A stretch of 12,887 bases of DNA from Nanobdellota archaeon (GCA_043814765.1 JBDRJQ010000002.1:1-12887), one strand, 5' to 3'. Positions 1 through 12,887 are shown, counted from the first letter of the stretch. Notes: generated by a model from the letters alone, not told the origin. Made by a program: numbers and translations.

Positions 1-588
1 CTATTCCTCGGATTCGTGATAGCATTCTCACTATGGTTCATATTCCTACCAGGAGCAACCGCAGAAAGCCTATTCGACACACAACTAAACACCATAAGCG
101 CAATCAACAGCCAAGCAACAGCAGGAAGCATAACAGGAGCCTACAGCACAAGATTCCTAAACGACATCATATCCAACAACCTAAAAGTGCTATTCTTCTG
201 CCTGTTCTTCTCATTCTTCTACGGAGCAGGAGCAATATTCATCCTAACATGGAACGCATCAGTAATATCCGCAGCAATAGGAACCTTCGTAAGAAACAAC
301 ATAGAAGTATACGCAGCATCAGTCGGCCTTTTCAAAGTAGCAGGATACATGCACATCTTCTCACTAGGAATAGTAAGATACATGACCCACGGAATATTCG
401 AAATAGCAGCATACTTCGTAGCAGCACTCGCAGGAGGACTAATATCAATAGCAGTAATGAAACACAACATAGGCACAGAAAAATTCAAAATAGTCATGAA
501 AGACGCTTTGATTCTAACATTCATAGCAGCAGTACTCATAATCGCAGCAGGACTGATAGAGGTTTATATAACACCAGTTCTTGTTTAA
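1..588 (+). CDS. Stage II sporulation protein M (SpoIIM/DUF95)-family membrane protein, 5'-truncated
   Basis: Frame is open from base 1 (LFLGFVIAFSLW...), so GTG16 is not the true start. The protein is hydrophobic with family-typical segments I(I)SNNLKV, WNASVI, HGIFEIAAY..A..GG and C-terminal AAGLIEVYITP. Stop TAA at 586-588. Confidence 0.85.
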   Translation, partial: LFLGFVIAFSLWFIFLPGATAESLFDTQLNTISAINSQATAGSITGAYSTRFLNDIISNNLKVLFFCLFFSFFYGAGAIFILTWNASVISAAIGTFVRNNIEVYAASVGLFKVAGYMHIFSLGIVRYMTHGIFEIAAYFVAALAGGLISIAVMKHNIGTEKFKIVMKDALILTFIAAVLIIAAGLIEVYITPVLV

Positions 589-633: not shown

Positions 634-3273
634 ATGAGCGAACTTGAAAAGAGGAAAGAGGCAGTTCTTGAAAAACTTAAACAGGTAACTAGCAAACCAA
701 TTTATTTAATATACTTGGTACTAGGAATAATAGTTTCATGGGGAGTATACATCAGAACAAGAAACCTAAGCATAATCAACTGGCAATACCCAATCGATCC
801 AGACTCGTTCGCATTCCTAAGATACGCAAAATATATAGCAGAACACGGGCACCTGATGGACATCGACATGCTTAGGTACTATCCGATAGGATGGTCTAAC
901 CTCTCAGAATTCAGAGTGCTAAGCTACTTCATTGCTTACCTCTACAAATTCCTAAACTTCTTAATGCCTTCAGTCACAATTGAAAACGCAGATGTGCTAT
1001 ACCCAGTAATATGCTTCGCGGGAGGAGCGATATTCTTCTTCCTGTTCATGAAAAAACTGTTCAACTGGAAAATAGGCCTAGTATCCACAGGATTCCTAAT
1101 AGTACTACCAGCATACCTCTACCGAACAATGGCTGGAGCGGCAGACAAAGAAGCATTCGCAACAATGATGATGTTCGCAGCACTCTACTTCTTCCTATAC
1201 GCATGGAAATCAAGCACAACAAGACAAGCAATAATATATGGGACCCTTGCAGGGCTACTCACAGCACTGACAGGCGCAGTATGGGGTGGTGTTATGTTTT
1301 TATTCCTAATATTCGCAACATTCACACTAATCAATGTCATTCTTGGACAGATGAATAAAAGAACCACCCTCACATATATATTATGGTTCATTATAATGGT
1401 AATCTCAATCAATAGCTTATATCCAGAGAGATTCTACCTAACAAACTTCATCTCAAGCATACAATCAACAGCAACAACCTTTGTGTTCTTCACAGTAATT
1501 GTATATTACCTACTCTCAAAAAAACCAGAGATAACAAGAAAACTAGTTGGCCTGACAAAGAAGAAACTTCCACTAGGATTCATAGCCCCGCTACTAGTCT
1601 TCCTAATAGGACTCATAGCACTAACCCTCTTCTCAGGACCAGAAAAAGTGATATACCAGATAACCCAAGGGTACATACAGCTAACAGAGCCATTCGGAAC
1701 AAACAGATGGGTACTGACAGTAGCAGAGGCACACCTGCCCTCATTCAGCGACTGGAAAGGACAATTCACACAAAAGTATCTATTGATAGTACTTGCAGGG
1801 GCAACCCTTGCGTTTTACACAATGACAAAAGTCTTCAAAACAAAGAGGATTATTCCCACAATAATATTTGCACTAGCCCTCGTAGGGATATCTATAAGCA
1901 GATACTCTCCGTCAAGCCCCCTACTAAACGGAAGCACAGGAATTGCACTTCTTATCTACTTCGGATCATTACTCTTGATATGTGGAATGTTCTTTTATGC
2001 ATATTTCAAATTCTTCAGCAAAGACAAACAGTCATTTGAACTCTTGCAAAAAATCGACAAAAGTGCATTATTAGCAATAATCATCCTATTATACCTCATG
2101 ATATCAGCAAAAACAGCAATACGACTATTGTTCATATTCGCACCAGCAACTGCAATATTCGCAGGATACTTCACAATAGAAACACTGGACCGGCTAAAAA
2201 AAATAAACAACGACACCTACAAGATAATCGGATATGTAATACTGATAGTACTAATCTCAACAACATGGTGGGGATTCTCAGAAGCAAGCATGAATCAAGC
2301 AAGATACACAGGGTCCAGCTACACATACCAATGGGTGCAATCAATGAACTGGGTACGGGAAAACACACCAGAAGATGCAGTATTCGCCCACTGGTGGGAC
2401 TACGGATACTATGTGCAAACCGGAGGAGAACGAGCAACACTAAGCGACGGAGGAAACTCAAGAGGAGCAATAAACTACTTCACAGGAAGACACCTGCTTA
2501 CAGGGCAAAATGAAACAGAAGCATTAGAGATACTGAAAGCAAACAACGCAACACACTTCCTAGTAGTGTACGAAGAGATAGGAAAATACCCTGCATTCTC
2601 ATCAATAGGATCAGATGTAAACTACGACAGATATTCCTGGATAAGCACATTCCAACTAGATCCAAGCCTTGTTCAAGAAACAAGAAACGAAACAGTACTG
2701 ATATTCACAGGCTCAACAGCAATAGATGAAGACTTCATATACCAAGACCAACTATTCCCCAACGGAGGAGCAGGAATCGGAGGAGTAATGATTCCAATAG
2801 AAACAAATACTGTGATGGAAGGCAACGCAAGCCAAACAACTCAAGAGATTAAACAACCAGCAATTTTACTAGTCTATGCAGGACAACAATACCAGATACC
2901 TTTAGAATGCGTATTCATTGACGGTGAAGAAAGAGTATTCCCACAAAAAGGATACCCAGGATGCTTCAGAGTCATGCCTTCAATAGACGGAGCAAACCAA
3001 GTGAATCCTTTAGGTGCGGGACTCTTGTTGTCACCAAAAGTAAGAAGAACAGTATTCACAAAACTATTCCTATATGACCAACCATCAGAATACTTCACAA
3101 AAGTCTACACAGACGAAAACACAGGTATGCCTCTCGCACTATACCAAGGGAGACTAATCGGTCCACTGAAAATCTGGGAAATAAGCTATCCTGACGACCT
3201 GGTAATACCAGAAGAATACTACGGCACAGAGGAACCAGAAGGGGTAACAGCGGTCGGGAAAAAATTTGCATAA
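634..3273 (+). CDS. aglB: Archaeal oligosaccharyltransferase AglB (STT3/PglB family), 879 aa
   Basis: Multi-TM N-terminal region plus soluble C-terminal domain. Motifs: WWDYG (2392-2406), TIxE-type TVAE (1717-1728), acidic DPDS in the first loop and RTMAGAADKE, DGGN after WWDYG, and DK-motif variant EIGKYPAF (2575-2598). Confidence 0.96.
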   Translation: MSELEKRKEAVLEKLKQVTSKPIYLIYLVLGIIVSWGVYIRTRNLSIINWQYPIDPDSFAFLRYAKYIAEHGHLMDIDMLRYYPIGWSNLSEFRVLSYFIAYLYKFLNFLMPSVTIENADVLYPVICFAGGAIFFFLFMKKLFNWKIGLVSTGFLIVLPAYLYRTMAGAADKEAFATMMMFAALYFFLYAWKSSTTRQAIIYGTLAGLLTALTGAVWGGVMFLFLIFATFTLINVILGQMNKRTTLTYILWFIIMVISINSLYPERFYLTNFISSIQSTATTFVFFTVIVYYLLSKKPEITRKLVGLTKKKLPLGFIAPLLVFLIGLIALTLFSGPEKVIYQITQGYIQLTEPFGTNRWVLTVAEAHLPSFSDWKGQFTQKYLLIVLAGATLAFYTMTKVFKTKRIIPTIIFALALVGISISRYSPSSPLLNGSTGIALLIYFGSLLLICGMFFYAYFKFFSKDKQSFELLQKIDKSALLAIIILLYLMISAKTAIRLLFIFAPATAIFAGYFTIETLDRLKKINNDTYKIIGYVILIVLISTTWWGFSEASMNQARYTGSSYTYQWVQSMNWVRENTPEDAVFAHWWDYGYYVQTGGERATLSDGGNSRGAINYFTGRHLLTGQNETEALEILKANNATHFLVVYEEIGKYPAFSSIGSDVNYDRYSWISTFQLDPSLVQETRNETVLIFTGSTAIDEDFIYQDQLFPNGGAGIGGVMIPIETNTVMEGNASQTTQEIKQPAILLVYAGQQYQIPLECVFIDGEERVFPQKGYPGCFRVMPSIDGANQVNPLGAGLLLSPKVRRTVFTKLFLYDQPSEYFTKVYTDENTGMPLALYQGRLIGPLKIWEISYPDDLVIPEEYYGTEEPEGVTAVGKKFA

Positions 3274-3274
3274 A

Positions 3275-4243
3275 ATGAACAAACCTTTATCTAAAAAAAT
3301 AACTGCCATAATCCCGAGCCTACCTGACAAAGACCCGGAACAAGCACTGGAAACACTAAAAAAAACTGACTACCCCCTTGACAAAATAGAAGTCATGATC
3401 ACTAAAGGAAAAAACCCCTCAAGACAAAGAAACCAAGCAATCGACAGAGCAACAGGCAATATAATATTCTTCTTCGACGATGACTCAGAAATACCAAAAG
3501 ACTACTTCAAAAAAGCGCTTGAGCATTATGAAGACGAAACAATAGACGCAATTGGAGGTCCTGCAGAAACCTCGAGAACAGCACCATTTCTGCAAAAATG
3601 CTTCGGATATGTAATTGGATCATACTTCGCAACACAGAGCATGAGCAACAAATTCCATGGACACGGCAAAGTCAGAGAAGCCACAGAAAAAGAATTAATA
3701 CTCTGCAATTTCAACATCAGAAAAGAATCGCTTGGAAAAAACAGATTCGACGAAAGACTATACCCCAACGAAGAAAACGAACTATTCAACAGATTAAAAT
3801 CAGAAGGGAAAAATTTTCTCTACGACCCCAACCTAAAAATCTACAGATACAGAAGAAAAAGCATACTCAACTTTGCAAAACAATTCTACAAATACGGATA
3901 TGGGAGAATAGAACACTTAATAATCAGACCAAGATCATTCTCACCAGTATTCATCATACCACCCCTCTTTGTGATATACCTACTGCTATTAATCGGGCTA
4001 ATTTTTATGCAAAAAGCATACCCAATATATTTTATTCCTCTGGCACTATACCTCCTAATCACAATCGGAAGCGCAGCAAAAATTGCAATAACTGAAAAAG
4101 ACCCAAAAACAATATTAATAACACCCCCCTTATTCTTAATAGTGCACACCTCATACGGCATAGGAATGATAACAAGCCTTTTAAACTTCAGAAAAACAGA
4201 ACGCCCAAAAGAGGTAAAAGTAACAAAAATAAAGCTAAAATGA
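3275..4243 (+). CDS. GT2-family glycosyltransferase with C-terminal membrane helices (ExoA-like), ~322 aa
   Basis: AIIP N-terminal strand, RN.AI..ATGNIIFFFDDD (DxD), AIGGP, FDERLYPNEENEL, KQFYKYGYGR and a hydrophobic C-terminus. ATG3275, 1 nt after the aglB stop, is preferred over TTG3266. Confidence 0.9.
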   Translation: MNKPLSKKITAIIPSLPDKDPEQALETLKKTDYPLDKIEVMITKGKNPSRQRNQAIDRATGNIIFFFDDDSEIPKDYFKKALEHYEDETIDAIGGPAETSRTAPFLQKCFGYVIGSYFATQSMSNKFHGHGKVREATEKELILCNFNIRKESLGKNRFDERLYPNEENELFNRLKSEGKNFLYDPNLKIYRYRRKSILNFAKQFYKYGYGRIEHLIIRPRSFSPVFIIPPLFVIYLLLLIGLIFMQKAYPIYFIPLALYLLITIGSAAKIAITEKDPKTILITPPLFLIVHTSYGIGMITSLLNFRKTERPKEVKVTKIKLK

Positions 4244-5697
4244 GAATCGCAATTGTCTATCCTCCCTTCACAAAAGGGAAGGAATACCCCCTACTAGGAC
4301 AAAACAGACAATTCAGATACTCCAACTCAAAAGAAGTAAGGATATTCCCCCTCATACCGGCAACAGCAGCAACAATCCTGAAAGAAGCAGGACACGAAGT
4401 ACTATTTCTAGATGGCATAAACCAAAGACTAACCAAAAAAGAATTCATACAAAAACTAACAGACTTCAAACCAGACTTAATTGCACTAGAAACAAAAGCA
4501 CCGGTAATAAAAATACACTGGAACTTCATAAATAAAACAAAAGAGAGGACAAAAGCAAAATTCGCACTATTTGGAGACCATGTATCCTACTTTCCAGAAG
4601 AATCATTCAAAAACTCAAAAGTTGATTACATAATAGTTGGGGGAGACTACGATGTTGGACTGCAAAAACTAACAGAGTCAATAGAGAAAAATAAAAAAAT
4701 GCCAGAGGGAATCTGGTACAAAAACAAAAAAATAATCCCTAACGGCAGATTACAAAACATAAAAAATCTAGACAAGATACCCTTCATCGACAGAGAACTA
4801 ACAAACTGGGACCTATACGGAGAAGCATATCTATACCAACCCTGCGCATACATACTAACAGGCAGAGGGTGTGGAAGTGAAGACTGCGGAGCAAGAGGAT
4901 GCACATTCTGCATATGGCAACACGCACTATGGAACAAAACAGCAAGACTAAGAAGCCCTGAAAATGTCGCAGAAGAAATAAGAATACTGGTAGCAAAATA
5001 CAAAATCAAAGAAATATTTGACGACAATGAAGGCGGAGCAGTATGGAGCACAAAATGGCTGAAAGAGTTCCATATTGCAATGGAACAAAGAAATCTGATC
5101 GGTAAAGTAAAAATATCAACCAATGCAAGAGCAGACTCACTCACAGAAGAAAACTGCAAACTAATGAAAAAAATCGGATTCAGACTCCTAAAAGTGGGGC
5201 TAGAATCTGGAAACAATAAAACACTCAAACTAATAAACAAACAAGAAACAGTGCAAGACATAATCAAAGGAGTAAAAACAGCAAAAGACCACGGACTGAT
5301 AGTCATGCTAACATCGATGGTAGGCTATCCCTGGGAAACCGAAGAAGATGTAGCACGAACATACAAAGTAGCAAAAGAACTAATGCTCTACAAAACTCAC
5401 CTTGGAGACTCACTACAATCAAGTGTAATAATGCCTTACCCTGGAACGCCGTTATACAACCAGTCACTAAAAAATAAATGGTTCCTAAAAGACCCAAAAA
5501 ACTATGAAATATTCAACCAAACACAAGCAATCCTAAAAAGTCCCATTGACACACAAAAATGGTGCAAAAAAATGTGGAGCATACATTCAAACCCAGTATT
5601 TATGACAAAAACACTCCTCAGCATAAGAACAAAAAGAGATATAACTTTCTTAGCAAGAGGCTTAAAATCAGTAATAGGGCACTTAAGAGATTATTGA
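4240..5697 (+). CDS. Cobalamin-binding-domain radical SAM protein (BchE/HpnJ-like class B fold) with atypical cysteine motif, 485 aa
   Basis: N-terminal Rossmann-like B12-type domain (GHEVLFLDG, PDLIAL, FGDHVS, VDYIIVG), then GRGCGSEDCGARGCTFC, RSPENVAEEI, VGLESG, VGYPWET and PYPGTPLY. ATGA overlap with the GT2 stop. Confidence 0.88.
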   Translation: MRIAIVYPPFTKGKEYPLLGQNRQFRYSNSKEVRIFPLIPATAATILKEAGHEVLFLDGINQRLTKKEFIQKLTDFKPDLIALETKAPVIKIHWNFINKTKERTKAKFALFGDHVSYFPEESFKNSKVDYIIVGGDYDVGLQKLTESIEKNKKMPEGIWYKNKKIIPNGRLQNIKNLDKIPFIDRELTNWDLYGEAYLYQPCAYILTGRGCGSEDCGARGCTFCIWQHALWNKTARLRSPENVAEEIRILVAKYKIKEIFDDNEGGAVWSTKWLKEFHIAMEQRNLIGKVKISTNARADSLTEENCKLMKKIGFRLLKVGLESGNNKTLKLINKQETVQDIIKGVKTAKDHGLIVMLTSMVGYPWETEEDVARTYKVAKELMLYKTHLGDSLQSSVIMPYPGTPLYNQSLKNKWFLKDPKNYEIFNQTQAILKSPIDTQKWCKKMWSIHSNPVFMTKTLLSIRTKRDITFLARGLKSVIGHLRDY

Positions 5698-5700
5698 GGT
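5696..5700 (+). promoter_or_regulatory. Shine-Dalgarno-like GAGGT
   Basis: GAGGT overlaps the upstream TGA stop and ends 4 nt before ATG5705. Confidence 0.5.
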
Positions 5701-5704
5701 AATT

Positions 5705-7201
5705 ATGAAGATACAATTCGTTTTCGCATCACCAATAGAAATGCCTAAATTCGGAGAGATGGGAGAACAAGTATCCCCCCCATTAGGAATCCTCTATTTA
5801 GCAGGATATCTAAGAGACAAAATCAAGGGAATTGAATTAAGCGCAATAGACGGTCCGAGAATAGGATTCAAAAAGACACTTCAAAAAATCAAAGAGTTCA
5901 ACCCAGACATCCTCTGCGTTTCCTACTATACAGTGTCTGCATTGGGCGCATATGAACTAATAAACTCCCTCAAAAAACATAATTCATCCCTTTTGGTGCT
6001 TGTCGGAGGCCACCATGTCACAGCACTTCCAGGAGAATCATTCAAAAAATCACAGGCAGACATAGAAGTATACGGCGAAGGAGAGATAACCCTAACAGAA
6101 ATTGTAAAAAATTATATCGAAAAAAAAGATCCAAAACAGATAAAACTTGAGAAAACACTCGGCATAGGGTATATGGACCGAGGAAAGTTAAAAATAACTC
6201 CACCCAGACCATTCATAACAGACTTAGATTCAATCCCCTACCCAGCAAGAGATCTCATAAAAATGGATGATTATAATGGATGGTACATCTCAAAGCAAAA
6301 CCCTCAAGCAAGAGTAATATTCGCAAGAGGTTGCCCCTATAGATGTACATTTTGCTCAAACAAAGTATGGAACAGACCGGGAGAAGGGGTAAGGATAAGA
6401 TCGCCTAAAAATATAGCAGATGAGCTTGAGATGCTCAAAAAACAATATGGCATAAGAGAATTTTTTGACGACGGAGACGAACTCAACAATAACATACCCA
6501 GAGCAATAGAGATATGCAAAGAAATCAAAAGGAGAAACCTATGGATGACTTGGAAATGCCAGCTAAGATGCAACAATCTTCCAGAAGAACTGGTAAAAGC
6601 GATGGCTGAAGCAGGATGCTGGTATGTACACTTGGGAGTTGAATCTGGAAATCAGAAAACCCTGAACGGTATAAAAAAAGCCATAACCCTCAAACAAGCC
6701 GAGGATGCATGCCGGCTACTCACAAAGCACGGAATAAAGACACTAGCACTATTCATGCTGTTCAATGTCTGGGAAGAAAACGGCAAACTATGCTTTGAAG
6801 GAGTTAAAGAAACAGAAAATACCCTTCGATTTGCCAAAAAGCTACTAAAAAACAAAACAGCATCATTCATATCCTCAACACAGACACAACCCTACCCCGG
6901 AAGCGAACTATACAACATAGCAATCAGGCACAATCTCATAAAAGAAGGCCTAAAAGGAAATTGGGACTCTTGGCTAAAAGATGAGATGTATATAATGCGC
7001 ATACCCGGAGTCAAAGAAGAGGATATGGCTAAGATGAGATCGAAAGCGAACTTAATAATCGCAAAGCATCTACTAAAATCCGGCAATATCTCTATGAGAG
7101 ACCTAGTCTTCTTTGCGAAGAAAGCAATGAAACTCCTAGAGGACAATATCAAAGCAAAACTAAGAACAAAAAAAGAACCTACATTAACTCTTTCAGCTTA
7201 A
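5705..7201 (+). CDS. Cobalamin-binding-domain radical SAM protein (class B type), 498 aa
   Basis: PPLGILYLAGYL, VGGHHVT, YGEGEITL, PYPARDL, canonical RGCPYRCTFC (Cys 6332-6355), GVESG and PYPGSELY. Confidence 0.92.
   Translation: MKIQFVFASPIEMPKFGEMGEQVSPPLGILYLAGYLRDKIKGIELSAIDGPRIGFKKTLQKIKEFNPDILCVSYYTVSALGAYELINSLKKHNSSLLVLVGGHHVTALPGESFKKSQADIEVYGEGEITLTEIVKNYIEKKDPKQIKLEKTLGIGYMDRGKLKITPPRPFITDLDSIPYPARDLIKMDDYNGWYISKQNPQARVIFARGCPYRCTFCSNKVWNRPGEGVRIRSPKNIADELEMLKKQYGIREFFDDGDELNNNIPRAIEICKEIKRRNLWMTWKCQLRCNNLPEELVKAMAEAGCWYVHLGVESGNQKTLNGIKKAITLKQAEDACRLLTKHGIKTLALFMLFNVWEENGKLCFEGVKETENTLRFAKKLLKNKTASFISSTQTQPYPGSELYNIAIRHNLIKEGLKGNWDSWLKDEMYIMRIPGVKEEDMAKMRSKANLIIAKHLLKSGNISMRDLVFFAKKAMKLLEDNIKAKLRTKKEPTLTLSA
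7163..7177 (-). terminator. Possible oligo-T archaeal terminator of the minus-strand operon
   Basis: Minus strand reads TTCTTTTTTTGTTCT just after the GT4 TAG (T7 at 7168-7174). It could equally be Lys codons of the + strand gene. Confidence 0.25.
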
Positions 7202-8246
7202 AAGAAAAGTCTCTACCTATTTTCTCCCAAGAATACTTATCCTGAATGAACTTAATTGCCTGCTCATTTTTATTATTTGACCTAGATGCTAAAGCATCAA
7301 TAATCCCTTCGGCAAATTCAGGTATACTCGTACCAGTCTGGTAGGTATAGCTTTTAAATGTGTAGAGATCACCAACATCGTTACATACAACTCTCTTCCC
7401 CATGGCAAGATTCTCACGTATCTTCATGGATGTCCTAAAATAATTCGCCTTACGAGCCTTATAATAAACAACACAGATATCGGCAAGCTTAATAAATTTA
7501 GCAACCTCAGTTTTATCCATATACCCAGTAAATACGACTTGATCTGTAATACCTAATTTTTTTGCTATTACCTTAAAATCCCCAAGCATCTGCCCGCCAC
7601 CAACGATTATAAGCTTAACATTTTTACGCTTCTTCACGACTATTGAAAAAGCTTCAAGTATCGCATCAAGATCAGATGCAACATTAAGATGGGCAGTGTA
7701 AACAATCAACTTATAACCCCCCAAAGAATATTTTTTGATAATTTCTGCCTTATCAAACGCCAAATCCGTGTTAAAAACATCAAAATCAACACCCTGATTA
7801 AGGAAATACAATCTATTTTCCTTAACCTTAAAATCCCTAATAGCATGCTTCCTCAAGTTATCGTTATGATAGCTAACCATATCAAAGAATCTCGGAAAAG
7901 GTGTCTGGACAGCCTTTGAAACAAGTGATATCAAACCATCCCTATAAGCATAATCTAAGTCATCTAAATCCAGAACAGTATATGCACCCCTAAACTTCTG
8001 GAAAAACATCGGAAAAGTAACATTCGGATAGGCCTTAATACCCACAACAACATCCGGCCTCTTGAAAAAAGATAGGAAAGTATATTTACATAAAGAAAGG
8101 GCATACTCAAACATGAATGGCTTTGAATGAACCGGCTTGATGTACTCAACAATATGCCCCTCTTTCTGTAGGGACTTTCCAAGATACTGTGTTTTAAGCC
8201 AGCAACCAGAATCTAAAGATGCCCCACAAATTAAAAGAAACTTCAT
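7179..8246 (-). CDS. GT4-family (GT-B) glycosyltransferase, 355 aa
   Basis: GHIVEYI, LDLDDLD, NQGVDF, LIIVGGG, VVFTGY, ADICV and SMKIRENLAMGKRVVCNDVG (GT4 K..E..A.G..VV motif). ATGA overlap with the upstream gene's stop at 8243-8246. Confidence 0.92.
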   Translation of the reverse strand: MKFLLICGASLDSGCWLKTQYLGKSLQKEGHIVEYIKPVHSKPFMFEYALSLCKYTFLSFFKRPDVVVGIKAYPNVTFPMFFQKFRGAYTVLDLDDLDYAYRDGLISLVSKAVQTPFPRFFDMVSYHNDNLRKHAIRDFKVKENRLYFLNQGVDFDVFNTDLAFDKAEIIKKYSLGGYKLIVYTAHLNVASDLDAILEAFSIVVKKRKNVKLIIVGGGQMLGDFKVIAKKLGITDQVVFTGYMDKTEVAKFIKLADICVVYYKARKANYFRTSMKIRENLAMGKRVVCNDVGDLYTFKSYTYQTGTSIPEFAEGIIDALASRSNNKNEQAIKFIQDKYSWEKIGRDFSFKLKELM

Positions 8247-9337
8247 TTTTTTCTCCTTTGATAAGTTAAGCTATCCTTTAGAATATAAGGATACAGCCAA
8301 GGATTAAATTGAATATTTCCATTCTGAAAACAAGAATGCGTACAGTAACAACTCTTTACTTTGATTGAAGACCGCTGAGATTTAGCAAGATCAGAATACC
8401 ATATCCTTAAAAAACTCTCAGCTTCCCTAAGATTGCCGACTTTCGGAAGCAATTCACAAAAATAAACATTTGCCTGAGCATCGACAACACAATGTACTTT
8501 GCCAGCATAACAGGGAATTAGCTGTTTCTTCTCTTCCATAATTCTAAGATACAGATCATATTGATAACTCCTTAACCCGTTAACCAGCTTAGATTTTAAC
8601 ATAGAATTCCTAAAATACTTATAAAAATCAAAAGTTTCAGAAATAACTTTCTTAGCATCCCTAAGCTTATCAACTGAAGGGCATTTCAATTCCGGATCCT
8701 TAGGTTTACCGCGCATAAACTCAAAATTATGAGACTCTATCAAAGGCATATTCTTTTTAACATAACCAATTAGTTCAGACAGCTCCCCGATATTTTTGTT
8801 TGTAATTGTAGTGTTCACCCTAATAACCAAATTGCCAAACTCTTTTTTCAAATCACGAAGCAAACTATAAGTCTCAAAAACCTTATCAAAACTTCCCTTA
8901 ACACCCCTAATATAATCATGGGTCTTCTCCAAGCCATCTAAAGACAAATTTATAGAGACAATACCCTTGCCGTTTGAAATAGCCAGTATATCTCTCGTTT
9001 TCTCTAAAATTTTCTTAGGTAAAAGACAACTGGTAGGTATAGAAAAGGAAGACATATGTTTGCAATTTTTGTAAAACCTCAGATATATCTGACTGATATC
9101 CTCTCTTAAAAATGGTTCTCCCCCTGAAATAGCCAATGTTTCTAAATTCGGAAGCTGCCTAGCCAAAGAGTCTATCTCACTAAGAGAAAGTTCATCTTTT
9201 GCAGGATTCAAAGTCTTCCAGTTAAAGCAATGCTTACATTTAGAATTACACCTGTCTGTAACAAATAATATCAAAAAGCTAGGAGTATTAAGATGATTCT
9301 TAATGACAGCAGTCCTTAGATAACTTAGCATTAACAT
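8243..9337 (-). CDS. Radical SAM protein with C-terminal SPASM/twitch-type Fe-S domain, ~362-364 aa
   Basis: FVTDRCNSKCKHC (CxxxCxxC 9227-9250), ISGGEPFLR, SLDG..HDYIRGV.GSF and a C-terminal CYAG...C...YFCE...CYCTHSC. Start is ATG9337 or ATG9331. Confidence 0.92.
   Translation of the reverse strand: MLMLSYLRTAVIKNHLNTPSFLILFVTDRCNSKCKHCFNWKTLNPAKDELSLSEIDSLARQLPNLETLAISGGEPFLREDISQIYLRFYKNCKHMSSFSIPTSCLLPKKILEKTRDILAISNGKGIVSINLSLDGLEKTHDYIRGVKGSFDKVFETYSLLRDLKKEFGNLVIRVNTTITNKNIGELSELIGYVKKNMPLIESHNFEFMRGKPKDPELKCPSVDKLRDAKKVISETFDFYKYFRNSMLKSKLVNGLRSYQYDLYLRIMEEKKQLIPCYAGKVHCVVDAQANVYFCELLPKVGNLREAESFLRIWYSDLAKSQRSSIKVKSCYCTHSCFQNGNIQFNPWLYPYILKDSLTYQRRKK
8253..8257 (-). promoter_or_regulatory. 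Shine-Dalgarno AGGAG for GT4
   Basis: Minus-strand AGGAG lies 6 nt upstream of ATG8246. Confidence 0.55.
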
Positions 9338-9354
9338 GACTAAAAATAACCCAA

Positions 9355-9404
9355 ATTATAAAGTTTGTGCATTTAAAGATAACTGATGCAAAACTTTTAA
9401 ATAG
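9355..9404. promoter_or_regulatory. Divergent back-to-back BRE/TATA promoters forming an imperfect inverted repeat
   Basis: + strand ATGCAAAACTTTTAAATA (9386-9403) lies ~30 nt before ATG9433. - strand ATGCACAAACTTTATAAT (9372-9355) has its TATA ~20-30 nt before ATG9337/9331. Confidence 0.6.
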
Positions 9405-9432
9405 TGCTGAAAAAACTTCAAGAAATAATAAA

Positions 9433-10854
9433 ATGAGAATCCTATTTATAATCCCAAACCTAAGCGGAGACTTCCAAAAAGCCATGCATCCCCACATAGG
9501 AGTCGGGTACATGGTAGCAATGCTGAAGAAACACAACCATAATTCTGAGGCAATAGACTTACGCATAGAAAGCAAACTGAAAAGCCTAGATAAAAAAGTC
9601 CGCTTCTTCAATCCAGAGATTATAGGCACAACATTTATGACAAGAGATTATAAAAAAGCCTACAAATTTGTAAACTTCCTAAAACAAAGATACAAAAGAA
9701 AGATAATTATTGGGGGGCCACACCCATCCTTATTTCAAGAAGAAACACTAAAAGGATGCAATGCAGACTATGCTATCGTCGGAGAAGGAGAATACGCAAT
9801 TCTCGCATTAGCAAACAAAGAGCCTCCTAAAAAAATAAAAAACCTCATCTGGAAAGATGGAGAAAAAATCATAAAAAACAAGACAGAAGTCATAGACAAC
9901 TTAGATGCTCTCCCTTTCCCAGCCTACGATAAAAACTCTCTAAAAAAATACGTTGACAAAAAGATTCCGCTAGTAACCTCAAGAGGATGCCCATTCAGCT
10001 GCGTATACTGTTCGATAAAAAATGTGATGGGTAAAAAATGGCGTCCTAGAAGTGCAGAAAACATAATTGAAGAAATAGAAAACTGGAAAGCAAACGGGTA
10101 TAACTTTTTTCACATAGCTGATGACAACTTTGCATTAGACCGTGAAAGGGTTAAAAAAGTATGCAACCTGCTTATTGGAAAAAAACTCAATATAAATTGG
10201 GATCTAAGAAATGGTATCCGAGCGGATACCGTAGATGAAGAACTATTAAGGCTAATGAAAAAAGCCGGCTGTGAATATGTCTCATACGGAATTGAATCAG
10301 TAGATCAAGAGGTACTTGATGCCAGCAAAAAAGGCCTAAAAGTTGAAACCATAGAAAAAGCAGTATATGCAAGTTTGAAAGTCGGCATCAGAACAGGAGC
10401 ATCATTCATAATTGGGTTACCAAAAGACAATTTCACTAAATTCAACAAATTACTAAGGTTCATCAATAAATACAATTTTGAAGAAGCCTTAATCTACAAC
10501 TGCGTACCGTATCCAAAAACAGAACTAGAAATTTGGATTAAGAAAAACGGTAGATACCTCAGTAGCCCAGAAGAATACCTGAATTATGCATCATACTGGC
10601 AGAATAAAGTCTTATTTGAAACCCCAGAATTCAGTGCAGCGGAAAGGACAAAAGCCTTCCAAATTGCTGAAACGGTAGTCTGGAAAAAGCTACTCAGAAA
10701 AGAATTAGGGTACCTGTTATCCACAATAGCATACCCTTTCTGGATAAATCCCACACTACGAAAAGCCTTCATAAAACCCGGACTAGCGCTATGGGTAGTG
10801 CTAAGAAAAATAAGGGGCAAGAAAAAGTATTACACACAAAATGGTCAAGCCTAA
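9433..10854 (+). CDS. Cobalamin-binding-domain radical SAM protein (class B type), ~473 aa
   Basis: MRILFIIP start (ATG9433 preferred over GTG9367, which lies within the promoter region), PHIGVGYM, IIIGGPHPS, VGEGE, LPFPAY, TSRGCPFSCVYC (Cys 9988-10011), ADDNF, GIES, FIIGLP and PYPKT. Confidence 0.92.
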   Translation: MRILFIIPNLSGDFQKAMHPHIGVGYMVAMLKKHNHNSEAIDLRIESKLKSLDKKVRFFNPEIIGTTFMTRDYKKAYKFVNFLKQRYKRKIIIGGPHPSLFQEETLKGCNADYAIVGEGEYAILALANKEPPKKIKNLIWKDGEKIIKNKTEVIDNLDALPFPAYDKNSLKKYVDKKIPLVTSRGCPFSCVYCSIKNVMGKKWRPRSAENIIEEIENWKANGYNFFHIADDNFALDRERVKKVCNLLIGKKLNINWDLRNGIRADTVDEELLRLMKKAGCEYVSYGIESVDQEVLDASKKGLKVETIEKAVYASLKVGIRTGASFIIGLPKDNFTKFNKLLRFINKYNFEEALIYNCVPYPKTELEIWIKKNGRYLSSPEEYLNYASYWQNKVLFETPEFSAAERTKAFQIAETVVWKKLLRKELGYLLSTIAYPFWINPTLRKAFIKPGLALWVVLRKIRGKKKYYTQNGQA

Positions 10855-12346
10855 AATTGATAAAGTTCTCCTATTGTTAACAAGCTGTCTTGCTGTTTAT
10901 TTTGCTATTAGGATTATTGACTTTTCAAAAATAATAAGCTACTTCCCAGTACATGTCACTGGAGACATTCCTTCTTATATGGCCCAATTATTTTTTTTAT
11001 CAGAATACGGCTTTCATCAGATTGTACCTTACTGGTTTAATGGAATGGTACTATTTTTAAGATATCCCCCAGGATGGTACTATTTCACACTTCCGATATA
11101 CCAATTAACTAAAAGTATCACATTAGCGACCTATATCTCAATAACAACAATTTTTTTACTAATCTTTATAGCTTTATACCAATTCGGAAAAGTCGAAAAA
11201 ATCTCTAAAGTAAAAAGAGTTGCATTTTTCTTCTTCATGTTCGGAAATGGAATCGCAGTAGGCAACTTCTTAAGATTAGGCAGAGTCACAGAGCTGTTCG
11301 GTTGGCTATGGTTTATTACAACTATGGCAATAATTCTATATTACAAAGACCATAGGGTGAACTTAAAGTTTTTTTGGATTATTCCCGCATATGCCATGAT
11401 AATCCTCAGTCATCCCCCATTAACTATATTTTTTAATATTTTATGTTTTTTCCCAATGCTGTTCTTAATAAAAAAAAGCATTTATGAAAAGATAATAGTT
11501 GTCCTATCAATGGTAGCTGGGCTTATAGCCTCAGCATTTTGGTGGGTTCCCTTTGTTCTAGACAATTTGAAAAATAATGTCCTTTCGAATAACCCTCTTG
11601 GTAAAAAAATGCTTGGATTAGAAGATCAGCCCCTGTTAAATTTTATTTTAAACAATATTGCCACATCTTCAATATGCATACTGCTGTGGGCATCATTCTA
11701 TGTCTACTGGCAACATAAAAACAAATCAAAAAGAGAACTCCTCTTTTTTTCACCTTTACTAATCTTAAGTTTACTATTCTTCCTAAGGATAAGCTTATTA
11801 CTACCTCTAGCAAACATAGTTTATTCAGACATTTATGCAATGGGGTTCCTGTTCTTCAGCTTATATTTCTTATTCAAAACCCCTTTAAGAAAAAGAGTTA
11901 AAATAATATTCTTAGTAATACTAACCCTATTCGTGATAGGAAATGTAGGTATATCCATCTTACATACCCCTTGGTTCCCTACATACACCCAAGTAGAATA
12001 CAACACATTTTCATTACTACAGTTGATACAAGGAAAATTCCTTATGATAAACAGCCCTTACCCAACCTCATATCCACATGCCTACTATTGCTATGCTTCG
12101 GTTTACTACAAAGTATCAACACCCTTCGGAATGGGAACAGAAGGGTTTTTCCCCTCTTACCTAAAGCCCATACAAGAAATTACCCAGTCCATAAACTCTA
12201 AAAATTGCGAAAACACAACAGAACTAGCCGAAAAAATAGAACTAACAGAAATAATTACCTATGATGACTCCTGCGACTTACTAAAAAACTGCGGATTCGA
12301 AGAGATAAAAACAAACAAACCTGCATGCCTGTACAAAATACGATGA
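10841..12346 (+). CDS. Polytopic membrane protein, PTPS-related/YfhO-like; probable GT-C-fold glycosyltransferase, 501 aa
   Basis: One N-terminal TM, then a loop with GD and W(F)NG..LF.RYPP, about 10 further hydrophobic segments including SAFWWVPF, and a short Cys-containing soluble C-terminus. Overlaps the upstream gene by 14 nt. Confidence 0.65.
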   Translation: MVKPKIDKVLLLLTSCLAVYFAIRIIDFSKIISYFPVHVTGDIPSYMAQLFFLSEYGFHQIVPYWFNGMVLFLRYPPGWYYFTLPIYQLTKSITLATYISITTIFLLIFIALYQFGKVEKISKVKRVAFFFFMFGNGIAVGNFLRLGRVTELFGWLWFITTMAIILYYKDHRVNLKFFWIIPAYAMIILSHPPLTIFFNILCFFPMLFLIKKSIYEKIIVVLSMVAGLIASAFWWVPFVLDNLKNNVLSNNPLGKKMLGLEDQPLLNFILNNIATSSICILLWASFYVYWQHKNKSKRELLFFSPLLILSLLFFLRISLLLPLANIVYSDIYAMGFLFFSLYFLFKTPLRKRVKIIFLVILTLFVIGNVGISILHTPWFPTYTQVEYNTFSLLQLIQGKFLMINSPYPTSYPHAYYCYASVYYKVSTPFGMGTEGFFPSYLKPIQEITQSINSKNCENTTELAEKIELTEIITYDDSCDLLKNCGFEEIKTNKPACLYKIR

Positions 12347-12887
12347 AAACACCTAGCTTCCTAAAAGATAATGTGCTACTCATAGTTGCAACCCTCTTTT
12401 TATCAACTTGTGGATACATATTCCACTTTATAGCAGGAAGAGAATTGGGACCTGCTGACTACGGGCTGGTTATGAGTTTACTTTCAATTATCTATATCGT
12501 GAATATTTTCCTACAGGCATTACAATCGATAATAGCCACAAAGATATCAGAAGCAAAAACACAAAAAGATAATTTAAAACTTATTGGGTTGCTGAAATTA
12601 TTTTTATACAAAAACATTTTATGGGCAGTATTTTTCTCATTAATATTTATAGCAATAACACCATTCTTAGCATGGTTGCTAAATACGACAAACTATTCAG
12701 TGATACTCATCTTGATTATCCTTATTTTTGGTGCATTCATGCTACCGATTGTGAGGGGGTATTTCCAAGGAGAACAGAAATTCGGGCAACTGAGCATAAC
12801 CTATATAACCGAAGCAATAGCTAAACTTGGATCATTAGTCTTATTACTTACGCTATACAAAGGAGTTGTAAGTGCAATGTTAAGCTT
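12343..12887 (+). CDS. Oligosaccharide flippase (Wzx/AglR-like, MOP superfamily), 3'-truncated
   Basis: Absent from the ORF track because it has no stop in the window. ATGA overlap at 12343-12346. My translation MKTPSFLKDNVLLIVATLFLSTCGYIFHFIAGRELGPADYGLV...RGYFQGEQKF...EAIAKL shows the flippase hallmarks R.LGP..YG and RG.FQG...F. Confidence 0.88.
   Translation, partial: MKTPSFLKDNVLLIVATLFLSTCGYIFHFIAGRELGPADYGLVMSLLSIIYIVNIFLQALQSIIATKISEAKTQKDNLKLIGLLKLFLYKNILWAVFFSLIFIAITPFLAWLLNTTNYSVILILIILIFGAFMLPIVRGYFQGEQKFGQLSITYITEAIAKLGSLVLLLTLYKGVVSAMLS

Follow-up and report, generated by a model that had tools for sequence, protein, structure and literature searches.

The Agl pathway of Haloferax comprises AglJ, AglG, AglI, AglE and AglD, the flippase AglR, AglS and AglB, and GtrA/B/C and ArnC/D/E-F/T are three-component systems for extracytoplasmic glycosylation. 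To our knowledge, all characterised protein-glycosylation pathways of archaea and bacteria tailor their sugars with ordinary two-electron enzymes, and we know of no characterised Agl pathway that uses radical S-adenosylmethionine (SAM) enzymes and of no Gtr or Arn system with such a step. Sugar tailoring by radical SAM (rSAM) enzymes is known so far from antibiotics, hopanoids and calditol. GenK/GenD1 and BtrN are sugar-modifying B12-domain or twitch rSAM enzymes of antibiotic pathways, and AprD4 is a sugar diol dehydratase, not a methylase. A precedent for rSAM enzymes acting on lipid-linked sugars is given in one article by HpnI (GlcNAc transfer), HpnK (deacetylation) and HpnJ (putative ring contraction) and by the calditol synthase Cds (PMC13459092), and MoeK5 is named as the methylase of the moenomycin pathway in another (PMC11214058). 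Here, contig C2 of a Nanobdellota archaeon (JBDRJQ010000002.1) was analysed over its whole length of 12,887 bp, which we call the window. It carries four rSAM genes (rS1 to rS4) among genes for an AglB-type oligosaccharyltransferase (OST), glycosyltransferases (GTs) and a flippase, and a first-pass annotation had described this cluster as a candidate radical-based glycan-tailoring system.

The cluster is a glycosylation locus with an uncharacterised layer of radical tailoring enzymes, which is real and recurrent and whose chemistry is predicted. With a probability of about 0.7, the rSAM enzymes belong to the glycan pathway and tailor its sugars, while any single reaction assigned to them is much less probable than this figure. 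Genes were called from a listing of open reading frames (ORFs) and from Pfam and NCBIfam scans of the window proteins:

634..3273, plus strand: AglB/STT3 oligosaccharyltransferase, 879 aa (PF02516, PF21436)
3275..4243, plus strand: membrane-anchored GT2 glycosyltransferase (PF00535, 41 bits; PF13632, 34.2 bits)
4240..5697, plus strand: rS1, rSAM enzyme with a weak B12-like N-terminal domain (PF04055, 73 bits; PF02310 below cut-off)
5705..7201, plus strand: rS2, B12-domain rSAM enzyme (PF02310, 68.6 bits; PF04055, 75.8 bits)
7179..8246, minus strand: GT4 glycosyltransferase (PF13692, 57.7 bits; PF00534, 56.7 bits)
8243..9337, minus strand: rS3, rSAM enzyme with a putative SPASM/twitch-type Cys-rich C-terminal domain (PF04055, 57 bits; PF13186 below cut-off)
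9433..10854, plus strand: rS4, B12-domain rSAM enzyme (PF02310, 62.9 bits; PF04055, 88.3 bits)
10841..12346, plus strand: GT-C-fold membrane glycosyltransferase, multi-helix, 501 aa (AlphaFold/Foldseek)
12343..12885, plus strand: polysaccharide/MOP-type flippase, gene cut by the contig end (PF01943, 42.7 bits; PF13440, 25.5 bits)
9338..9432, no strand: AT-rich intergenic region separating the divergent rS3-GT4 and rS4-GT-C-flippase units
1..588, plus strand: SpoIIM-family membrane protein, gene cut at its 5' end (PF01944, 51.9 bits)

The genes form three tightly packed transcription units, in each of which rSAM genes and glyco-genes are mixed. With an ATG start for the GT2 gene, the gap between aglB and GT2 is 1 nt; GT2 and rS1 overlap by 4 nt and rS1 and rS2 are separated by 7 nt. 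On the minus strand GT4 overlaps the upstream rS3 by 4 nt, and in the third unit rS4 and the GT-C gene overlap by 14 nt and the GT-C and flippase genes (ATG at 12343) by 4 nt. With ATG starts, both the gene content and the junctions given in the first-pass annotation were correct; alternative starts are an in-frame TTG at 3266 for GT2, a GTG at 9367 for rS4 and an ATG at 12325 for the flippase. When the window AglB was used as query against metagenomes, 17 loci were retrieved, among them a 4.3-kb contig (L046) with aglB, GT2, rS1 and rS2 in the same order and with identities of 75, 68, 78 and 75%, respectively.

The locus resembles the archaeal Agl systems in that an OST with the WWDYG motif, a GT2, a GT4, a MOP-type flippase and a GT-C enzyme possibly adding the last, outside sugar are all found in an aglB-centred variable island. 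The window is best viewed as a variable island for N-glycosylation in a small archaeon, taken to be DPANN from the names of its closest homologs (Woesearchaeota or Nanoarchaeota). GT2 and GT4 would build a short glycan on polyprenyl (dolichyl) phosphate at the cytoplasmic face of the membrane. The four rSAM enzymes would tailor its sugars before flipping, and they would have to do so in the cytoplasm because SAM, reductant and iron-sulfur clusters are needed; they would act either on the lipid-linked intermediate or on the nucleotide sugar from which it is made. The flippase would then export the product, the GT-C enzyme would add on the outer side a further sugar carried on a lipid phosphate, and transfer of the glycan to Asn residues of surface proteins would fall to the AglB paralog encoded in the cluster, which makes an N-glycan the predicted final product.

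The linkage of rSAM genes to glyco-genes extends beyond the window. The source genome (859 kb in 39 contigs, estimated to be 88% complete with 1.2% contamination) contains 27 matches to Radical_SAM (PF04055) and 14 to the B12-binding domain, and 12 paralogous B12-domain rSAM (B12-rSAM) genes were counted: the three of the window and nine on contigs C8, C12 (two), C21 (two), C26, C32 (two) and C33. Annotation of 91 neighbouring proteins with Pfam revealed a GT2, a GT4 or a PMT_2-type GT-C within four genes of nine of the 12 paralogs. The pair on C32 has heptose-nucleotide genes, an epimerase and a flippase-like protein (PF03706) in the same island, and a GT2 six to seven genes off; the C33 copy, beside BNR/sortilin-repeat proteins, is the only paralog found elsewhere. 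Seen from the GT genes, 14 of the 17 GT2, GT4 or PMT_2 matches are located at most 8 kb from a B12-rSAM paralog, a zone that makes up 10.1% of the genome, and nine of them at most 3 kb away (6.1% of the genome). The linkage between rSAM and GT genes exceeds chance, and with GT genes clustered and contigs short it corresponds to about six or seven independent associations (islands), not 17. Paralogs of rS3 were detected on C26, C32 and C20.

On C32, a set of genes resembling those for heptose-nucleotide synthesis (NTP transferase, HAD phosphatase, GHMP kinase and SIS isomerase; 16918-20478) and a gene for a SWEET/PQ-loop protein were observed upstream of the two B12-rSAM genes and one SPASM-like rSAM gene.

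A comparable picture was obtained for the sister genomes. A search with rS2 gave a match at E <= 1e-20 in 17 of the 21 genomes of the same family and order (source genome included), and the number of rS2-family copies was 12 in the source genome, 8 in a genome of the same genus and 0-5 elsewhere. A profile built from the 12 paralogs retrieved 29 homologs in 20 sister-genome loci, for which 149 of the 153 neighbours within four genes were annotated (four ORFs of 70-73 aa were dropped). A GT or flippase was present within four genes of 23 of the 29 homologs. A recurring module combines a B12-rSAM and a class I methyltransferase with a PMT_2 GT-C, a flippase-like protein of PF03706 and a small GT2 of 223-240 aa, and in some cases with a SPASM rSAM as well; L026, L028, L019 and L009 are examples, as are the organism's own contigs C8, C21 and C26. 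Most of the paralogous rSAM genes thus lie beside modules of GT2, PMT_2-type GT-C and flippase-like protein and not beside an OST, and in the source and sister genomes paralogs occur among genes for DegT aminotransferases, epimerases, UDP-glucose dehydrogenase and heptose synthesis.

These paralog loci resemble the Gtr and Arn systems, as they combine a small GT2, a flippase-like protein, an ArnT/PMT_2-type GT-C and sometimes an ArnD-like deacetylase, and the logic is shared in that a lipid-phosphate sugar is tailored before flipping. Apart from the radical step, the window differs from them in that its final transferases also include an OST.

In the same-genus genome G001, a contig of 35 kb (C22) carries six B12-rSAM genes interleaved with genes for GTs and flippase-like proteins, and it also holds DegT, FemAB, Asp/Glu racemase and amine oxidase genes. 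The many short rSAM contigs of the source genome may be pieces of one large island.

To follow rS2 beyond the order, one genome per species was scanned with a search seeded by rS2's own peptide words, so that the survey covers the rS2 group. Full-length relatives with 45-72% identity were found at 16 loci: in one Woesearchaeota metagenome-assembled genome (MAG; 72%), in three Desulfobacterales MAGs (65-68%), in MAGs of Planctomycetota, Actinomycetota, Fibrobacterota, Auribacterota, Fermentibacteria, Edwardsbacteria and UBP2, and in two unclassified bacteria. The group is thus present in at least eight named bacterial phyla, while identity to any paralog or homolog of rS2 within the order is at most 39%. 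Gene contexts were annotated for 15 of the 16 loci (113 neighbours; L044 was left out as its match is not an intact ORF), and at 12 of the 15 a GT or GT-C lies within four genes. The order GT4, rSAM, NodB-type deacetylase, GT2 recurs in L032, L040 and L043. In L036, L039, L041 and L042, the rS2 ortholog is directly followed by a Dpy19-like GT-C (PF10034), which measures 783-838 aa where complete (the L039 copy is truncated at the end of its contig). In L036 and L042 an STT3 homolog, 833-834 aa long, is nearby, and the MAGs with these Dpy19-like loci are labelled Planctomycetota, Auribacterota and 'uncultured bacterium' (L039). Polysaccharide loci with Wzy, Bac_transf and chain-length-regulator genes were found in L033 and L034. 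The Woesearchaeota locus (L029) holds orthologs of rS1 (71%) and of the GT-C protein (39%), together with three more B12-rSAM genes and genes for a flippase, a GT4 and a methyltransferase. The neighbourhood survey, put forward at first pass as a check on the glycan-tailoring proposal, places these rSAM clades recurrently beside glycosylation genes in both domains. Among the Desulfobacterales, the rS2 ortholog of L030 (5721-7244) was observed to be split into a B12-domain ORF of 164 aa and an rSAM ORF of 329 aa; a frameshift, a misassembly or decay to a pseudogene would account for this.

The contexts also bear on the substrate. In L036, the sole cytoplasmic glyco-enzyme beside the rSAM gene is a GT2 resembling polyprenyl-phosphate-sugar synthases, and for this reason a lipid-linked sugar or its nucleoside diphosphate (NDP) precursor is favoured as substrate. 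In the HpnI-HpnK-HpnJ side-chain module of bacteriohopanepolyol biosynthesis and in the archaeal Cds system, a lipid receives a sugar from a GT2, and the lipid-linked sugar is then remodelled by an rSAM enzyme (PMC13459092); the trio of GT2, deacetylase and rSAM is also present in L032, L040 and L043. The window itself contains no deacetylase, and its B12-type rSAM proteins are not HpnJ (142-160 bits against a cut-off of 577.6), the reaction of which is itself only proposed. The locus further differs from Hpn and Cds in its flippases, GT-C enzyme and OST, which imply export and transfer to a protein or polymer and not the formation of a membrane-lipid head group.

For the three B12-type rSAM proteins, HpnJ (TIGR03471), itself of the B12-domain type, is the best or second-best curated match, and for rS1 the best NCBIfam match (rS1 160, rS2 150.2 and rS4 142.2 bits). 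The BchE model gave 119-156 bits against a cut-off of 481, and rS1, rS2 and rS4 also scored far below the cut-offs for GenK/KedN5-type, PhpK, AprD4, MgmA-type (TIGR04014) and other curated B12-rSAM families. In rS1, four cysteines at residues ~205-225 form the cluster motif C-x4-C-x4-C-x2-C instead of C-x3-C-x2-C. This motif is created by a five-residue insertion that is shared by all three members of the rS1 group (window, L029 and L046; orthologs 71-78% identical), whereas members of the sister clade retain C-x3-C-x2-C. For rS4, 1778 homologs were retrieved at E <= 1e-40, all with generic or transferred names and the closest with 57-65% identity. One of its homologs (P0196, 690 aa, 61% identity) is a natural fusion with a class I methyltransferase domain and therefore ties the rSAM enzyme to its recurrent methyltransferase neighbour. 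In rS3, the SPASM domain (PF13186) scored 20.1 bits against a cut-off of 21.5 and is found in most of the best 120 homologs; its 2836 homologs at E <= 1e-10 bear generic or transferred names, and the best curated family gave 76.7 bits against 395. None of the four proteins clusters with a characterised non-glycan enzyme, as all NCBIfam scores are far below the cut-offs. An identity of rS3 with the tetraether synthase Tes/GDGT-MAS was considered and rejected (NF045702, 53.8-54.7 bits against a cut-off of 450).

Among proteins of the PDB, AprD4 is the nearest solved relative of rS2 by sequence (E 3e-17), followed by OxsB. The AlphaFold model of rS2 (predicted local-distance difference test, pLDDT, 91.1) matched the folds of MgmA, AprD4, OxsB, CysS, TsrM and TokK near-equivalently over both domains. 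MgmA was the best match and AprD4 the second-best (template-modelling score, TM, 0.73-0.75, target-normalised), and identity in the structural alignments was below 20%. Because neither the sequence nor the structure comparison with the PDB discriminates between them, the reaction type is not fixed. The B12-domain enzymes most probably catalyse C-methylation, or a rearrangement or dehydration of the HpnJ/AprD4 kind, at unactivated sugar carbons. The window enzymes share their domain architecture with the antibiotic rSAM enzymes AprD4 and OxsB, both of which were matched by rS2. AprD4/OxsB-type enzymes act on soluble pseudo-oligosaccharides or nucleosides in actinomycete secondary metabolism, whereas primary surface glycosylation would be served here, with up to 12 paralogs per genome.

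Several observations weigh against a role in glycan tailoring. The carrier-linked pathway parts reported at first pass (GT2, GT4, flippase and OST) were all found in the window, and an initiating phosphoglycosyltransferase (PF00953 or PF02397) was not found there. Three B12-binding rSAM proteins had likewise been reported, of which rS2 and rS4 pass the Pfam cut-off for PF02310 (32.1 bits) and rS1 stays under it with 27.8-30.5 bits. No curated NCBIfam family cut-off was reached by any of the four rSAM proteins, which leaves the reaction unassigned, and the fold of rS2 is about equally near to the protein methylase MgmA and to AprD4. Six of the 29 sister-genome homologs lie outside glyco contexts (L012, L015, L016, L023, L024 and L027): L012 is beside NUDIX, MazG and beta-propeller proteins, L016 is an uninformative contig of 1.7 kb, and L015, the best match to rS2 within the order, adjoins SecDF and mevalonate genes (thiolase/HMG-CoA synthase). 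Among the 15 rS2-ortholog loci, three have no GT within four genes (L030, L035 and L038), the nearest GT2 of L030 being five genes off and L035 and L038 containing mostly unannotated ORFs. None of ten loci with other full-length AglB homologs (38-43% identity) carries a B12-rSAM in the available flanking DNA. The tetranucleotide correlation of C2 with the rest of its bin is 0.938; among the 23 contigs that measure 10 kb or more no other is as low, the remaining 22 ranging from 0.953 to 0.998. Finally, a FecCD/BtuC-type permease was not found in the 88%-complete genome, where other transporter types were not searched; the many B12 enzymes would have to be supplied in a cobalamin non-producer that has no recognisable importer. 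The glycan-tailoring role thus has the linkage of genes on its side (the organism's own paralogs, 23 of 29 sister homologs, 12 of 15 rS2 loci and L046), and the radical chemistry and the part in host recognition or virus evasion proposed with it at first pass keep the rank of predictions.

The main rival model, which we regard as unlikely, is that the rSAM enzymes modify lipids by methylation or cross-linking of membrane-lipid or dolichol isoprenoid chains, as Gmm does, and that the glyco-genes are merely co-located envelope genes. It draws on the fact that the best curated matches are rSAM enzymes of lipid pathways, namely HpnJ, HpnR and the ladderane-associated TIGR04072, that rS3 has its best solved relative in the tetraether synthase GDGT-MAS, and that homolog L015 adjoins mevalonate-pathway genes. 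The genome moreover encodes a genuine Tes, which scores 745 bits with NF045702 (cut-off 450), but this gene is located on contig C1, away from any GT. Paralogs of the window enzymes are instead surrounded by enzymes of NDP-sugar metabolism (DegT, epimerases, UDP-glucose dehydrogenase and heptose genes), and bacterial rS2 orthologs occur in Wzy/Bac_transf loci, where an archaeal-type lipid does not exist. Twelve divergent lipid methylases would also be hard to explain in 0.86 Mb in which geranylgeranylglyceryl phosphate (GGGP) synthase was not detected. Gmm is a B12-binding rSAM enzyme that methylates archaeal GMGT lipids, and it falls in the same broad class as the archaeal B12-domain enzymes of the window (PMC11214058). 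Gmm adjoins lipid genes (gms, grs), whereas the window enzymes adjoin GT and NDP-sugar genes, a comparison by context and not by sequence.

The Tes gene of the source genome spans C1:3017-4459, and no match to the GGGP synthase PcrB was obtained in the 88%-complete assembly. The presence of Tes together with this negative result suggests remodelling of scavenged diether lipids.

Very unlikely in our view is a function of the rSAM enzymes as peptide or protein maturases, either in the manner of ribosomally synthesised and post-translationally modified peptide (RiPP) pathways or acting on the glycoprotein acceptor, alongside the GTs (compare glycosylated RiPPs and the GT-plus-rSAM systems of Bacteroidetes). 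SPASM rSAM enzymes are typically peptide maturases, and rS3 weakly matches the WgkB, PapB, AlbA and mycofactocin maturase models; rS2 and rS4 match the RiPP methylase ApyD at 129-131 bits, GT4 matches TIGR04157 (glyco_rSAM_CFB) at 49 bits, the protein methylase MgmA heads the fold matches of rS2, and the organism's own C33 copy and L012 adjoin beta-propeller surface proteins and not GTs. All of these peptide-maturase scores are nevertheless far below the cut-offs. ORFs nested in genes aside, a precursor gene would not fit into the window, whose sole intergenic gaps are of 45 nt (589-633) and 95 nt (9338-9432), and the Pfam scan detected no RiPP recognition element (RRE), protease or ABC exporter among the window proteins. 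A separate RiPP-like rSAM cluster of the genome, on C20, forms a distinct and more distant outgroup, and the partners conserved across domains are GTs, deacetylases and GT-C enzymes.

The AglB of the window matches PF02516 with 62.5 bits (cut-off 24.5) and PF21436 with 31.5 bits (cut-off 23) and contains the catalytic WWDYG at residues 587-591 and a DPD at 55-57, which was assigned to the first external loop by position alone. Against TIGR04154, the archaeosortase-A-associated subfamily, it scored 110.9 bits and did not reach the cut-off of 450, which indicates an STT3 homolog outside this subfamily. It is a second, divergent OST of the genome. The core AglB (744 aa) lies within C38:6591-9852, directly upstream of an AglH-like PF00953 gene, among genes for HMG-CoA reductase, PGM, PGI and other housekeeping functions, with no rSAM gene nearby; it is of the type that is present in the sister genomes as the conserved core OST of the order. 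The ten loci with other homologs of the window AglB resemble ordinary aglB islands, in which a flippase gene and genes for GT2s and NDP-sugar synthesis accompany a PF00953 gene; one of them (L054) has a non-B12 rSAM gene at its edge. Since these ten homolog islands are without a B12-rSAM and L046 has it, we conclude that the rSAM cassette was inserted in one lineage, into the variable region downstream of the window-type AglB. The coupling of AglB and rSAM genes suggested at first pass therefore holds for the window and L046 and does not extend to the ten other AglB homologs or to the core AglB of the genome; the tie of rSAM enzymes to AglB is lineage-specific, and the general association is with glycan assembly and not with AglB as such. 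In a metagenome locus (L048:7986-13295), two full-length AglB genes were found in tandem, encoding proteins of 878 aa each that are 42% and 38% identical to the window AglB.

No ortholog of the window AglB, rS1, rS2 or rS4 was found in the 20 sister genomes. In a 42-member family tree, rS1, rS2 and rS4 are placed on long terminal branches, and the other paralogs have clear same-genus orthologs. A tree of 64 rows (quick search with support from the Shimodaira-Hasegawa-like approximate likelihood ratio test, SH-aLRT; rooted on distant paralogs; rS2-seeded sample) contained an rS2 clade of 15 sequences with a support of 100, in which the window, Woesearchaeota and Desulfobacterales sequences form a subclade (support 100) within a set of bacterial ones. 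For three further paralogs from bacteria, the partner in the tree is a DPANN paralog (support 99-100), and rS4 pairs with a paralog of Actinomycetota (SH-aLRT 99). By this phylogeny rS2 looks to have been acquired horizontally from bacteria. Its nested position and the three paralog pairs point to an exchange of whole rSAM sets between the domains, for which the simplest direction would be from bacteria to this archaeal lineage. The composition of C2 fits recent acquisition or mis-binning, two cases which it does not separate.

It is improbable, though, that the cluster is real and its tie to the organism or to N-glycosylation incidental, with C2 transferred or mis-binned, the glycan passed to another acceptor (lipid or polysaccharide) by the GT-C enzyme, and AglB serving a different glycan. 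Such an account would suit the compositional outlier position of C2, the nesting of rS2 inside a bacterial clade, the missing orthologs of four window genes in the sister genomes, the core AglB with its AglH-like gene elsewhere in the genome, and the other AglB homologs of the same type without B12-rSAMs. It is opposed by the spacing of aglB, GT2, rS1 and rS2 (1, -4 and 7 nt) and their identical order in L046, by the GC content of C2 (0.374), which matches the bin, by the nearest relatives of rS1, rS2, rS4 and the GT-C protein, which all stem from MAGs labelled Woesearchaeota or Nanoarchaeota, and by the pairing of SpoIIM and AglB that is common to other DPANN-like contigs.

More tentatively, the clusters could be mobile cassettes that move between Bacteria and DPANN archaea and bring radical chemistry to the diversification of surface glycans, with a different change at the carbon level for each B12-rSAM subfamily, and that were plugged here into an OST; we consider this extension possible but doubtful. 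The changes to the lipid-linked sugar may in this case be C-methyl branches, deoxygenation or an HpnJ/Cds-like contraction to a carbocyclic pseudo-sugar, and the resulting N-glycans would contain sugars that are new to all characterised protein glycans.

Irrespective of such mobility, at least 12 B12-type and three to four SPASM-type radical enzymes are given over to the glycosylation islands of an organism with about 900 genes, and the rS2 group is conserved across at least eight bacterial phyla, always unnamed and mostly beside glycosyltransferases. A published link of B12-type rSAM enzymes to AglB clusters, DPANN glycosylation or polysaccharide/O-antigen-type loci was not found among open-licence articles and preprints. 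The present analysis adds a cassette wired directly to an OST, the cross-domain rS2 group and the genome-wide count of paralogs. If the enzymes indeed act on lipid-linked sugars, they would represent an extensive part of the surface-glycan chemistry of uncultured microbes that has so far gone unstudied, and a source of new biocatalysts for C-H functionalisation, and the aglB-GT2-rS1-rS2 operon is compact enough for expression testing.

The GT2 of the window is 68% identical to that of L046 and 30% identical to the GT2s beside the rS2 orthologs in the Desulfobacterales loci L030 and L031, and it probably makes the first sugar transfer onto the lipid carrier. To the AglG model of NCBIfam, the best match reached 27 bits, the cut-off being 440. 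The GT-C protein matched PF10131 with 25.3 bits, below the cut-off of 26.4. Its AlphaFold model (pLDDT 90.1) retrieved STT3, AglB and DPY19 in a Foldseek search at TM 0.61-0.62 and E 1e-6, with yeast STT3, A. fulgidus AglB, C. elegans DPY19, AftD, PglB and ArnT among the matches, so that the GT-C label given at first pass stands despite the sub-threshold Pfam score. The 71 homologs of the protein are all named 'hypothetical' and carry mostly Woesearchaeota or Nanoarchaeota labels, and D42 is invariant in an alignment of 38 sequences. A profile comparison with the PMT_2 paralogs of the genome was weak (hhalign probability 23.5%), which sets the two families apart. The 501-aa protein is accordingly a GT-C enzyme of an unnamed, mostly DPANN family distinct from the PMT_2 paralogs.

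The divergent region at 9338-9432 presumably holds the promoters of both flanking units; in a scan for bacterial-type promoters and terminators, a type of scan ill-suited to archaea, sites were no more numerous than in shuffled sequences. In L053 and L054, the gene that immediately precedes the AglB homolog encodes a homolog of the SpoIIM-like protein (53-54% identity), and this protein is a conserved upstream neighbour of this type of AglB that stands outside the glycan chemistry.

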